A DNA stretch of 64,000 nucleotides from Escherichia coli (GTDB lineage: Bacteria > Pseudomonadota > Gammaproteobacteria > Enterobacterales > Enterobacteriaceae). Shown here piece by piece: positions 44,987 to 50,382 of the stretch. Every line of letters starts with the position of its first letter. The first letter of the stretch is position 1. The notes beneath the pieces are model-generated. The model was given only the letters and a program-made list of their open reading frames with translations, did no database searches and had not been told where the DNA came from. A program made the position numbers and the translations under genes. The stretch lies in NCBI RefSeq assembly GCF_022846255.1, contig NZ_AP025682.1. One strand, written 5' to 3'.

Positions 44987-45022
44987 AGACGCGACTGGCG
45001 ATGCCAGTCGCGAAAAGAAGGG

Positions 45023-45472
45023 TCAGGCTTTTACCTGCTGGTAACGGCTGACTTTAAACAGTCGGCGGCAATAATCGAGGAAGTAGCCATAAACCGCCCC
45101 CATCAACATCGAAACAACGATGTTTGAACTGACCGCCGCCATAATCTGATGCCAGTCTGCGCCCACCACTAACAAGATCGCCACATACACCGGTGACTGG
45201 AACGTCACATAAGCCAGGATATCCGCCAGATTTTTTATCCAGCCCGACGGGCTAACTTTGCGTGCCGCGCGCATAAACAGATCGCGGTACATACCGTATG
45301 GCCATGCAATTAAGATGTTCACCGGAATCGCTACCAATCTGGAATAAAAAGACTGTTCGAAGCTCATTCCGGAGAGGAAAACTTCAATACACATGTTCAC
45401 GACAGAACAGTAAACAACCATCGCGAACGTATCTGCAACTGCATGACGCAAGCGTGACTGCGGTGAGAACAT
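45023..45472 (-). CDS. alaE: L-alanine exporter
   Basis: 149 aa small membrane protein (formerly ygaW). Confidence 0.9.
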
Positions 45473-46139
45473 GCTAATGCTCCTTAATAAAAGCGTAATG
45501 GGATGTTAATGGAGATGAAAGCAGTGGATCTCATTGCCATCTGCATTTTCGCATAGCGTATATCGCTGGCTATGACTAATCAATTAGTGAAAAATTTTTA
45601 TTTAATCTGTTTTTGTAGATAAAATATTCCGTAACGGCGCGTTTTTTGTACATTGTGGATTTTTACATGCCGGTATGATTTATTTTTAATTAAATCAATT
45701 GGATATGTGTTTACCTTTATTTTCACTCATGAAGGTTTGGGGGGGAGGTAACGCTATAAGCGTAGAGAATTCGGTGTATGTAGTGATCGGGTCATTTTCA
45801 GCATTTTTTATGCCAGATAATGTACATTGACAGCAGAAAGCACCAGTGAGTGATGTTTTCTTTTATTCTGTTGAGTTGCATTTTTATTCACTTTGGTTTT
45901 GTCAGGCTTGCGGAATTAGCGAGCAGAGAGCGCCGCTCTGTTCACCAATAACCTAAATTACTCATCAAAATGGCTAATATATAATCTTGAAATTATTCTG
46001 AGAGTTTCAGAAAATAACAGCTGAAATAATCTCGTGCAGGACTGTAAATAGATTAAATTTTGTGGAAATATAATAAGTGATCGCTTACACTACGCGACGA
46101 AATACTTTTTTGTTTTGGCGTTAAAAGGTTTTCTTTATT

Positions 46140-46544
46140 ATGTCCGTAATGTTACAAAGTTTAAATAACATTCGCACCCTCCGTGCGATGGCTCGCGAAT
46201 TCTCCATTGACGTTCTTGAAGAAATGCTCGAAAAATTCAGGGTTGTCACTAAAGAAAGACGTGAAGAAGAAGAACAACAGCAGCGTGAACTGGCAGAGCG
46301 CCAGGAAAAAATTAGCACCTGGCTGGAGCTGATGAAAGCTGACGGAATTAACCCGGAAGAGTTATTGGGTGATAGCTCTGCTGCGGCACCACGCGCTGGT
46401 AAAAAACGCCAGCCGCGTCCGGCGAAATATAAATTCATCGATGTTAACGGTGAAACTAAAACCTGGACCGGTCAGGGCCGTACACCGAAGCCAATCGCTC
46501 AGGCGCTGGCAGAAGGTAAATCTCTCGACGATTTCCTGATCTAA
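46140..46544 (+). CDS. stpA: H-NS paralogue nucleoid protein / RNA chaperone
   Basis: 134 aa [32 protein letters not shown] with C-terminal DNA-binding region; preceded by a 667-bp AT-rich leader. Confidence 0.95.
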
Positions 46545-46590
46545 TTACTGAGGCCGGATGCCGCTGCTATGGCGCGTCCGGCGTCGCTTC

Positions 46591-47115
46591 TCAAGCTCGT
46601 TGGTTCCACGGCATCTTATCTAACAATCTTGCCATTCCACAAAAACCACTAATTCCTGCAAACAGTAACCCAGCACCAACAAAGCCGCTTAATAAGAAGA
46701 AAACGCTATTTACGGTATAACCCAGTACAACGCCGATTAATATTAAACCACCCGCGGCGATCTGCACCTGGCGCATTAACGGCAAGGGTTGGGATTTATT
46801 TACCGCTACTGGCAATCCTGCTTTTTTCCAGCCATCAATCCCATCTTCGAGTAAAAAGATTTCTGCGGGGGCGGCAATCGCTGCTAATTTATCGGCGTTA
46901 TTACTGGTGCGTTTACCTGCCTGGCAGTGGAATATAATTTGCTCGCGACGTAATTTAGGCGGAAGACCTGACTGTTCCAGTACGGATAATGGAGCCAGAT
47001 CTGCTTCAGGAATATGTTCACGAAGATATTCATCAGCATCACGAATATCGATTAACTTTGCGCCGCGTGCGATTAATTCTTGTGCATCATGCGGCGAAAT
47101 GGTTGTCAAAGCCAT
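46591..47115 (-). CDS. ygaP: Membrane-anchored rhodanese (thiosulfate sulfurtransferase)
   Basis: 174 aa; rhodanese active-site Cys loop (FHCQAGKRT) and C-terminal TM segments. Confidence 0.9.
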
Positions 47116-47124
47116 AGTGACTCC

Positions 47125-47424
47125 TTACGGACAATAGACATTTTTCAGGGTGGCGATAATGGCATTTACCGCCTCATTTTTAATGGAATATAGAATGCGT
47201 TGGGCATCCCGTTGGCTGTCGATAAGCCCTTCGCCCCGCATACGAGCGAGATGCTGTGATGTCGCAGAGGCACTCAGTCCGGTAATGCGCGTCAGCTCTC
47301 CCGCGCTGGTGCCGGGGGAACCGCTAAGCATACACAGAATCAGCAATCGTTTAGGGTGGCTCATTGATTTCAATAAGGCCGCTGCCTGTTCGGCACTGGC
47401 CTGTAATTGTGCGAGTTCAGTCAT
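47125..47424 (-). CDS. ygaV: ArsR/SmtB-family transcriptional repressor
   Basis: 99 aa winged HTH; immediately upstream of ygaP on the same strand (operon). Confidence 0.9.
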   Translation of the reverse strand: MTELAQLQASAEQAAALLKSMSHPKRLLILCMLSGSPGTSAGELTRITGLSASATSQHLARMRGEGLIDSQRDAQRILYSIKNEAVNAIIATLKNVYCP

Positions 47425-47606
47425 AGTTATTTAAGTAATTTCTAAATTAAGTAAACTCTAAACTAAGAGTGCAACATATACCAGCATCAGCAGCGTAAAT
47501 GAGAGTAAAAGCGTAAGCTGAAACTGGCAGGCTCCGATAAAATTACTACGCTTAAGAGATAAAATCTCTTTTTAAACAATGAGTAATTTTCTTATAGGGA
47601 GTACAT

Positions 47607-47765
47607 ATGGGTTTCTGGAGAATCGTCATCACCATCATTCTGCCGCCGCTCGGCGTGCTGCTCGGTAAAGGGTTCGGTTGGGCGTTCATTATTAATATTC
47701 TGCTGACACTGCTTGGCTATATCCCCGGTTTGATTCACGCGTTCTGGGTGCAAACCCGCGATTAA
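47607..47765 (+). CDS. yqaE: Pmp3/UPF0057-family small membrane proteolipid (52 aa)
   Basis: ATG at 47607 preceded by RBS gggag; translates MGFWRIVITIILPPLGVLLGKGFGWAFIINILLTLLGYIPGLIHAFWVQTRD; absent from the supplied ORF track, presumably for being under 60 aa. Confidence 0.88.
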   Translation: MGFWRIVITIILPPLGVLLGKGFGWAFIINILLTLLGYIPGLIHAFWVQTRD

Positions 47766-47848
47766 ACCTGTGCTCACCCCCGCGGCGTTAACGCGCCGCG
47801 TTCCTCTGCTACACTTTCTGAGTGTTTCCGTTAACGAATGAGGTAGCT

Positions 47849-48298
47849 ATGGGTCTGTTCAATTTTGTGAAAGATGCCGGAGAAAAACTCTGGGACGCGG
47901 TTACAGGTCAGCACGATAAAGACGATCAGGCGAAGAAGGTGCAGGAGCATCTGAACAAAACCGGTATACCTGATGCCGATAAAGTGAACATTCAAATTGC
48001 CGACGGCAAAGCGACGGTCACTGGTGACGGCTTAAGTCAGGAGGCGAAGGAGAAAATCCTTGTTGCGGTGGGGAATATTTCCGGTATTGCCAGTGTCGAT
48101 GATCAGGTGAAAACGGCGACACCAGCCACTGCCAGCCAGTTTTATGCCGTTAAGTCTGGCGACACTCTGAGTGCCATTTCCAAACAGGTCTACGGTAACG
48201 CTAATCTGTACAATAAAATCTTCGAAGCGAATAAACCGATGCTAAAAAGCCCGGATAAAATTTACCCGGGGCAAGTGTTGCGTATTCCTGAAGAGTAG
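47849..48298 (+). CDS. kbp: Potassium-binding protein with BON and LysM domains
   Basis: Start at [15 protein letters not shown] inside the longer ORF (47822..48298); C-terminal LysM (also called ygaU). Confidence 0.92.
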
Positions 48299-48961
48299 TT
48301 AATTGCCAGCCATCGCCTGCTGGATAATGGGAATCGGCGTCAGCAAATGCTGGCGCATTAACTCACTGGCGCGCGCGGCATCCCGCGCCAGCACAGCTTC
48401 GGTTAAAATTTGATGTTGGTTGTGTTTATCTTCCAGCATTTCCACGGAAAGTACCGTTCGCCGCAGCCAGATGAAGCGATAGCGCGCCGCCAGATCAAAC
48501 AACCGTTCACGCATTTGCAGCAAATAGTGAGAACCACAGCCTGTCACAATTGCAGTATGAAACGCCTGATGACGCAGATCCCACTCATCAAGCATTTTCT
48601 CACTGGCGTCACAGGCCTCAAGCTTACTGAGCAGATGCGCCTTCGCAAGAACGTCTGCCTCCCACTCATCACTACCGCGGGCAATCGCCAGGCTTACCAG
48701 CATCGCTTCCATATTGGCACGGGCATCGAAAATATCGAGCAGCTCCTGCTCTGACATAGACGCCACCCGATACCCTTTTTGATTCACCACCGTGACCAGT
48801 CGTTCTGCCACCAGTTGCGAAAGCGCTTCCCGCAACGGCCCAACGCCAAGTGCATAACGCGATGTCAGCAAACTCATCCGTAATTTTTCATCCGGCTGAA
48901 AATTGCCGCGAATAATATCGTTCTTCAGCCAGCGATAGCCATCCAGAGAGGTAATGGTCAT
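48299..48961 (-). CDS. csiR: GntR/FadR-family repressor of the csiD-lhgO-gabDTP operon
   Basis: Start at MTITSLDGYRWL inside the longer ORF (48299..48979). Confidence 0.9.
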   Translation of the reverse strand: MTITSLDGYRWLKNDIIRGNFQPDEKLRMSLLTSRYALGVGPLREALSQLVAERLVTVVNQKGYRVASMSEQELLDIFDARANMEAMLVSLAIARGSDEWEADVLAKAHLLSKLEACDASEKMLDEWDLRHQAFHTAIVTGCGSHYLLQMRERLFDLAARYRFIWLRRTVLSVEMLEDKHNQHQILTEAVLARDAARASELMRQHLLTPIPIIQQAMAGN

Positions 48962-48981
48962 GGTGTGACTCCTGATCATTA

Positions 48982-50382
48982 TCAGCGCGTATTATGAATG
49001 GGTGTTTTTTGCCACATTATCAGCTTTTTCCAGCGAGCCATAATTGGCACGGTACAGATAATCCCAATCGCTAATAAGCCGGTGGAGAGCACTTCTAACT
49101 GTTGCGCCGGGCGGAATAGCATCACTACCAACACAAAGGTAATAAAACCGATTACCAGCCAGGTGAGCCACGGATAAAGCCACATCCGCAGGCGAATTTC
49201 GCTTCCTTCTGCTCGCAGAATTTTGCGCATCCGCAATTGTGAAACGGCGATGACTAAATAAACCAGCAGGGCGATAGCGCCGGAGCTGTCGATCAGAAAT
49301 TTAAACACCTTCGCAGGCGCGTAATAGTTCACCACCACCGTTAAGAATGCCGCGCCGGTGGAGAGTAACACCGCCACGTACGGGGTTTTACTGCGGTTGA
49401 TTTTACCCATTACCGCGGGAGCATCACCGCGACGGCTTAAGGAGTAGAGCATCCTGGAAGCGGTATACAGCGCCGAGTTCAGGCAACTGGTTACGGAAAG
49501 TAATATCACGCAGTCCATGATTAATTTCGCATGAGGAATATTGAGCAATTCCAGAACCGAGCGATAAGAACCAACGGCTTTCAGCCCCGGCATATTCCAC
49601 GGGATTAATGCCACAACGACAAAAATAGAACACAAATAGAAAATAGAGATACGCCAGATAACCGAGTTGGTGGCGCGGACAATATGTTTTTCCGGCGTGT
49701 CGGATTCCGCGGCGGCAATGGTGACAATTTCTGCGCCCATAAACGAGAACATGGTGATCAACATCGCGCTTAATACCGCACCGAAGCCGTTGGGCATAAA
49801 GCCGCCGCTATCCCACAATCTTGAAATACCGCTCACGTCGGCATACGGGTAAAAACCGCTAATTGCGACTGCACCAAGGAAAATAAAGGCCAGGATAGCG
49901 ATGACTTTACACAGCGCCAGCCAGAACTCAAATTCGCCGTAGTTTTTAACGCTTAATAAATTACTGCCGGTTAAGGCGAGGGTAATGACGAGGGAAAATA
50001 ACCAGATGGGAATGCCTGGAACCCACGAGTGCAGGATCATGGCGGCGATGTTGGCTTCAAGTGGGATAACCAGTACCCAAAACCACCAGTACAACCAGCC
50101 GATGGTATAGCCCGCCCAGCGGCCAATGGCTTTATCGGCATAGGTGGAAAACGAACCGGTATCAGGCGTGGCAACTGCCATTTCCGCCAACATCCGCATA
50201 ATCATAACCACCAGTAATCCGGCGAACAGATAGGCCAGTAATACCGCCGGGCCCGCTTCGGCGATGGCGACGCTGGAACCGACAAACAGACTTGCGCCGA
50301 TAACACCGGCAATAGACAACATGGTGACGTGGCGTGACTTCAGCCCGCCGCCTAACTCATGTGGTTGCGATGATTGCCCCAT
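48982..50382 (-). CDS. gabP: Gamma-aminobutyrate permease (APC family)
   Basis: Start at MGQSSQPHELGGGLKSRHV, 21 codons inside the longest ORF (48982..50445). Confidence 0.93.
   Translation of the reverse strand: MGQSSQPHELGGGLKSRHVTMLSIAGVIGASLFVGSSVAIAEAGPAVLLAYLFAGLLVVMIMRMLAEMAVATPDTGSFSTYADKAIGRWAGYTIGWLYWWFWVLVIPLEANIAAMILHSWVPGIPIWLFSLVITLALTGSNLLSVKNYGEFEFWLALCKVIAILAFIFLGAVAISGFYPYADVSGISRLWDSGGFMPNGFGAVLSAMLITMFSFMGAEIVTIAAAESDTPEKHIVRATNSVIWRISIFYLCSIFVVVALIPWNMPGLKAVGSYRSVLELLNIPHAKLIMDCVILLSVTSCLNSALYTASRMLYSLSRRGDAPAVMGKINRSKTPYVAVLLSTGAAFLTVVVNYYAPAKVFKFLIDSSGAIALLVYLVIAVSQLRMRKILRAEGSEIRLRMWLYPWLTWLVIGFITFVLVVMLFRPAQQLEVLSTGLLAIGIICTVPIMARWKKLIMWQKTPIHNTR

Follow-up and report, generated by a model that had tools for sequence, protein, structure and literature searches.

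The locus examined here raises the question of what a small repressor gene and the membrane rhodanese gene directly behind it do together, and of which signals and DNA sites control them. The two genes lie in a window of 64,000 nucleotides of Escherichia coli DNA, the whole stretch that was analysed, and their RefSeq names in E. coli, ygaV and ygaP, are those given in the original prediction. The genes and their junction are arranged as follows:

47125-47424, minus strand: ygaV, an open reading frame of 99 aa
47116-47124, minus strand: intercistronic gap GGAGTCACT, exactly 9 nt
46591-47115, minus strand: ygaP, an open reading frame of 174 aa
47126-47121, minus strand: ygaP Shine-Dalgarno sequence AAGGAG, overlapping the ygaV stop codon, 5 nt before the ygaP ATG
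47607-47765, plus strand: yqaE, divergent from ygaV

Read on the minus strand, the junction is CCG TAA GGAGTCACT ATG. Position 47125 closes the ygaV stop codon and position 47115 opens the ygaP start codon; the pair marks the junction only, not the extent of the feature. The predicted 9-bp gap is therefore exact, and the ORF coordinates likewise support the predicted limits of the ygaV-yqaE divergent region (47425-47606), which is 182 bp long with 32% G+C. Neighbouring genes in the window are stpA, yqaE, kbp (ygaU), csiR, and gabP.

The locus is almost certainly the E. coli core-genome ygaVP operon, a sulfide-inducible sulfur-transfer module under negative feedback. E. coli K-12 ygaVP (YgaV P77295, YgaP P55734) has the same genes, gene order, 9-nt junction, and promoter as the window. 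By megablast of 46400-47800, the locus is present on the chromosome of 5417 of the 5426 complete E. coli genomes, with top identity (99.6%) to B2-phylogroup strains such as LF82 and with stpA, ygaP, ygaV, and yqaE annotated there. The two genes are adjacent on the same strand with conserved synteny, and their co-transcription and repression are known from the literature (PMC9774250, and Gueune 2008 cited therein). Publications already cover the genes of ygaVP, the structures, the promoter, the inducer, and the sensing chemistry, and the window copy is not unusual. Describing the operon as relatively little studied was an overstatement, given a YgaV crystal structure, several YgaP structures by NMR, X-ray, and EPR, and no fewer than four recent studies of the YgaV mechanism. 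What is added here is a cross-genus operator footprint and a CpxR box of yqaE that is equally well placed for ygaV, both of which are refinements and not new biology.

Conservation extends beyond the species. Nine relatives, one representative per species, were retrieved with a degenerate pattern for the YgaV segment HPKRLLILCML: E. albertii, E. whittamii, three other Escherichia lineages, Salmonella enterica subsp. arizonae and diarizonae, and two Citrobacter. The divergent order yqaE<>ygaV-ygaP is kept in all nine, with stpA also downstream in eight, and identity to the window proteins is 86-95% for YgaV and 73-95% for YgaP. In all 10 species (the window and its nine relatives) the gap is 9 nt long, and TAAGGAG is kept except in one Citrobacter, which has TAAGGAA.

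Published work supplies the regulatory logic. YgaV represses ygaVP, and ygaP reads are increased in a ygaV mutant (PMC9774250). Treatment of YgaV with Na2S yields a C31-C98 tetrasulfide form that binds DNA about five-fold more weakly, and a ygaV-lacZ fusion responds to 0.2 mM Na2S with three-fold induction and is expressed constitutively when ygaV is mutated (PMC9774250). Apo-YgaV responds to polysulfide and not to H2S, and YgaV-bound haem allows oxidation of the cysteines by H2S plus O2 (PMC12344995). Tributyltin induction and co-transcription of ygaV and ygaP are credited to Gueune 2008 in PMC9774250, and the same paper documents the sulfide and organotin link that had been proposed for the operon. 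The operon is also induced by FimH-mediated adhesion (PMC2865769).

YgaP is an inner-membrane thiosulfate sulfurtransferase. It scores 49.2 bits against the Pfam family Rhodanese (PF00581; cut-off 22.2) and 32.8 bits against YgaP-like_TM (PF11127; cut-off 25.3), which confirms the prediction of a rhodanese with transmembrane anchors. It matches the PDB structures of the YgaP rhodanese domain (2MOI and 5HBL) and transmembrane domain (2MPN) with E values from 1e-65 to 1e-37; residues 107-174 alone match 2MPN at 8e-37. The rhodanese domain comprises residues 1-107 and carries an active-site loop of the six-residue rhodanese type, C64-QAGKR-T70, while the hydropathy profile shows hydrophobic stretches at about residues 117-141 and 137-160, a two-helix anchor (about 117-160) that contains C159. 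In the published description YgaP dimerises, residues 1-107 form a cytoplasmic rhodanese domain and residues 117-174 a two-helix membrane domain, the cysteines of the protein are C64 and C159, and binding of SCN- tightens transmembrane helix 2 (PMC4730233). Across the 10 species the loop is kept as CQ(A/S)GKRT, the membrane motif GFCGMARLL with C159 is invariant, and the linker and membrane domain form the best-conserved part of the protein. The window YgaP differs from that of LF82 at one residue (A79 versus V79).

A rival reading concerns the main role of YgaP. YgaP has thiosulfate:cyanide sulfurtransferase activity (PMC4730233), and together with the SCN--induced tightening of helix 2 and the conservation of the membrane domain and C159, this activity would fit a protein that mainly detoxifies cyanide and exports thiocyanate through its membrane domain, as opposed to one that handles persulfide or sulfane sulfur in sulfide stress. 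However, it is sulfide or polysulfide that induces the operon, through a persulfide sensor (PMC9774250), and a primary role in cyanide detoxification is thus a real but doubtful possibility. YgaP by itself failed to increase the level of sulfane sulfur from thiosulfate in cells (PMC10215317), and that study, like PMC9774250, describes the in vivo substrate of YgaP as unknown.

Several RNA-level features surround the two genes. The ygaV leader (47425-47449, minus strand), which reads TAATTTAGAAATTACTTAAATAACT-ATG, has no recognisable Shine-Dalgarno sequence, whereas ygaP has the consensus AAGGAG; this contrast suggests, from sequence, that ygaV and ygaP are translated at unequal rates. At the other end of the operon, a REP-like GC-rich hairpin (GCCGGATGCCGC...GCGCGTCCGGC, 46550-46585) is found within the 46 bp that separate stpA from the convergent ygaP gene. 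When both strands were folded, the result was significant on the stpA-sense strand only, at -26.9 kcal/mol and z = -2.6. The hairpin was rejected as a ygaP terminator, since the ygaP strand lacks a U-tract and has z = -0.7. A scan of 46500-47900 for terminators returned two matches, both inside ygaP and at chance level, and a search of 45000-49000 against Rfam (E<=1) returned a chance mir-190 match alone, and thus no RNA element.

Control of the operon begins at a mapped promoter. By primer extension, transcription of ygaVP was mapped to begin 28 nt before the ygaV ATG (PMC9774250). The window has exact matches to all four of the published K-12 primers, and the promoter data from that work therefore carry over directly to the window copy. 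In DNase I footprints, apo-YgaV covers the start site and the sigma-70 recognition elements, and the protected area holds a sequence resembling the SqrR site ATTC-N8-GAAT (PMC9774250). The promoter and candidate operator elements of the window are:

47452, minus strand: published ygaVP transcription start, mapped onto the window from PMC9774250
47465-47460, minus strand: candidate -10 hexamer TAGTTT, proposed from the alignment, TAnTTT in all species
47447-47462, minus strand: candidate operator dyad 1, TTTAGAGTTTACTTAA, of the form TTTAG-N6-CTWAA, spanning -10 to +6
47431-47446, minus strand: candidate operator dyad 2, TTTAGAAATTACTTAA, abutting dyad 1, +7 to +22 of the leader
47455-47470, minus strand: ACTC-N8-GAGT palindrome, an alternative or extra operator candidate, overlapping dyad 1 by 8 bp

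Its position and its conservation in the alignment make the TAnTTT hexamer at 47465-47460 a plausible -10 element for the start mapped by primer extension. A sigma-70 consensus scan of 46500-47900 returned no promoter, and the pair TTGCAC (-35) and TAATTT (-10) may be an alternative ygaVP promoter, from which transcription would begin near 47438.

The divergent region had been suggested as the place to look for an ArsR-type operator palindrome, and operator-like dyads are indeed present at 47431-47462. A repeat search identified this segment as a tandem direct repeat of 16 nt with 14 of 16 positions identical, a degree of repetition reached in none of 5000 dinucleotide shuffles of the 182-bp region. 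A 12-nt inverted repeat that overlaps the tandem repeat (83% complementary) was not significant alone, being matched by 6.5% of shuffles; the operator proposal therefore builds on the tandem repeat and its conservation between species. Among the 10 species, no block near the start site is better conserved than the doubled TTTAG-N6-CTWAA motif: its half-sites hardly change, its 6-nt spacers vary, and in several species the dyad units are perfect palindromes, such as TTTAGAATTTTCTAAA in E. albertii. The motif occurs at these two places only in 64 kb, against 0.11 expected, a comparison that is partly circular in that the motif was derived here. This pattern suggests that the core of the ygaVP operator consists of two abutting 16-bp TTTAG-N6-CTWAA dyads, with one dimer likely bound to each. 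The published lacZ fusion ends at 47442, so that dyad 1 is complete in it while dyad 2 is cut off after its first half-site. As this truncated fusion remains repressed by YgaV (PMC9774250), dyad 1 appears to be sufficient for repression.

An alternative operator would consist of a single SqrR-like 16-bp palindrome, ACTC-N8-GAGT, placed over the -10 element in place of the tandem dyads. This palindrome is a perfect 4-8-4 repeat with the geometry of the SqrR site, it may be the similar sequence that PMC9774250 marked in the protected area, and in other Escherichia it reads ATTT-N8-GAAT, a form with one change in which the dyad is preserved. Its ACTC and GAGT arms, however, are not conserved in Salmonella and Citrobacter, where TTTAG and CTWAA hardly vary, and a lone palindrome is accordingly considered unlikely. 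The two models share 8 bp and are not mutually exclusive.

The tandem dyads share the divergent region with a site for a second regulator. A perfect CpxR consensus, GTAAA-N5-GTAAA (GTAAATGAGAGTAAA, 47495-47509, plus strand), is the sole match in 64 kb, against 0.08 expected, and lies within a block that is strongly conserved across Escherichia, Salmonella, and Citrobacter. This box precedes the published ygaV start by about 50 bp and also lies upstream of yqaE. The CpxR targets given in PMC7657598 include both yqaE and ygaU, and yqaE has an annotated CpxR site at which a CpxR footprint has been recovered (2026 bioRxiv, 10.1101/2025.05.13.653802). A literature search for a link between ygaV or ygaVP and Cpx found none. 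The divergent region could be shared, such that the envelope-stress regulator CpxR would co-activate ygaVP while YgaV at the two abutting dyads acts as a gate, although we regard this arrangement as a long shot. If true, shared CpxR control would offer an explanation for the induction of ygaVP by membrane-active tributyltin and by surface adhesion.

The yqaE side of the region has features of its own. The sequence GATAAAAT occurs twice upstream of yqaE, 22 bp apart (47536-47565, plus strand), as possible -10 elements. A perfect 9-nt inverted repeat, AAAATTACT/AGTAATTTT, with a 34-nt loop, lies in the likely yqaE leader (47539-47590, plus strand), and the upstream segment 47536-47590 is highly conserved across genera. 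yqaE is also a reported target of the CyaR sRNA.

By sequence, YgaV is an ArsR/SmtB winged-helix repressor of the SqrR/BigR/HlyU persulfide-sensing type. It scores 49.6 bits against HTH_5 (PF01022; Pfam cut-off 22) and 73.3 bits against the ArsR/SmtB subfamily model NF033788 (cut-off 55), its best NCBIfam match. Both scores exceed curated cut-offs, and the description of YgaV as a small ArsR/SmtB repressor stands; failure of the ArsR or rhodanese assignment in domain searches had been named as the test that could refute the pairing, and both assignments passed. YgaV reaches 57.1 bits against the BigR equivalog NF040642, far under its cut-off of 155, and is thus a homologue or relative of BigR but not its orthologue; it likewise falls far below the cut-offs of the NCBIfam equivalog models PagR and CmtR. 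In a PDB search, 97 of 99 residues are identical to 3CUO, the E. coli YgaV crystal structure, and the next-best relatives are HlyU, NolR, SqrR, and BigR.

The residues available for sensing are few. The only cysteines of YgaV are C31 and C98, both of which are invariant in the 10 species and align with the persulfide-reactive cysteines of HlyU, and its only histidines are H23 and H58. The persulfide-sensor cysteine pair of the SqrR/BigR/HlyU type (ArsR cluster 4), with one member in helix alpha-2 and one at the C-terminus, is present. A check for metal sites found no CXC motif in alpha-3, and helix alpha-5 (NEAVNAIIATLKNVYCP) has no His and no His/Asp/Glu set. A classical ArsR/SmtB metal or organotin sensor, in which direct ligand binding would free the DNA and the sulfide response would be secondary, is highly improbable: the top NCBIfam match is a generic 'metalloregulator ArsR/SmtB' model and ygaVP was first described as tributyltin-inducible (Gueune 2008, cited in PMC9774250), but YgaV lacks both of these metal sites, its closest solved relatives are persulfide sensors and not SmtB or ArsR, the C31-C98 tetrasulfide and the specificity for polysulfide have been shown experimentally (PMC9774250, PMC12344995), and organotins react with dithiols, so that tributyltin probably acts via the C31/C98 pair.

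The preferred reading of the locus is a feedback cycle that is driven by sulfane sulfur. Reduced, dimeric YgaV would occupy the AT-rich dyads over the -10 element, start site, and leader and thereby block RNA polymerase, a step that combines published footprinting with the dyads proposed here. Sulfane sulfur, in the form of polysulfide or of H2S plus O2 acting via haem, would convert C31 and C98 to the tetrasulfide described for the K-12 protein. The affinity for DNA would then drop about five-fold and ygaV and ygaP would be co-transcribed, again as published for K-12. With its strong AAGGAG, YgaP may be made in excess over the repressor, and its cytoplasmic rhodanese Cys64 takes up sulfane sulfur, with transfer to cyanide as the reaction seen in vitro. 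In E. coli, H2S and persulfide signals that pass through YgaV influence the genes of anaerobic respiration, the level of reactive oxygen, and tolerance to antibiotics.

Comparable sensors are found in other bacteria. SqrR of Rhodobacter capsulatus and BigR of Xylella and Agrobacterium have the fold of YgaV and its cysteine pair in alpha-2 and at the C-terminus, and like YgaV they control sulfurtransferase genes from a 16-bp AT-rich dyad operator (PMC9774250). They are only distant homologues (E values of 3e-12 and 6e-11), and their half-sites also differ, with TTTAG/CTWAA for YgaV versus ATTC/GAAT for SqrR. A further difference is that the DNA binding of YgaV is little affected by haem (PMC9774250). 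The closest solved relative besides YgaV itself is Vibrio HlyU (E value of 4e-18), which also forms a tetrasulfide upon persulfide treatment and whose hlyA operator has a TAATTTAG core in common with the YgaV site (PMC10054925). HlyU differs in that it is an anti-silencing activator of toxin genes and has no membrane rhodanese partner.

The window YgaV is a B2-phylogroup allele, identical to that of LF82 (WP_000137290.1), and differs from the K-12 protein by A20S and D64G. Residue 64, just past the recognition helix, is D or E in K-12 and the nine other species and G in the window and LF82, while residue 20 is A in K-12 and the nine other species and S in the window and LF82. The contig NZ_JAATUR010000021.1, labelled Escherichia coli SCPM-O-B-8794, encodes a YgaV that is 90% identical to that of the window, versus 94% for the YgaV of E. 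albertii; this genome is probably mislabelled or belongs to a divergent Escherichia lineage.
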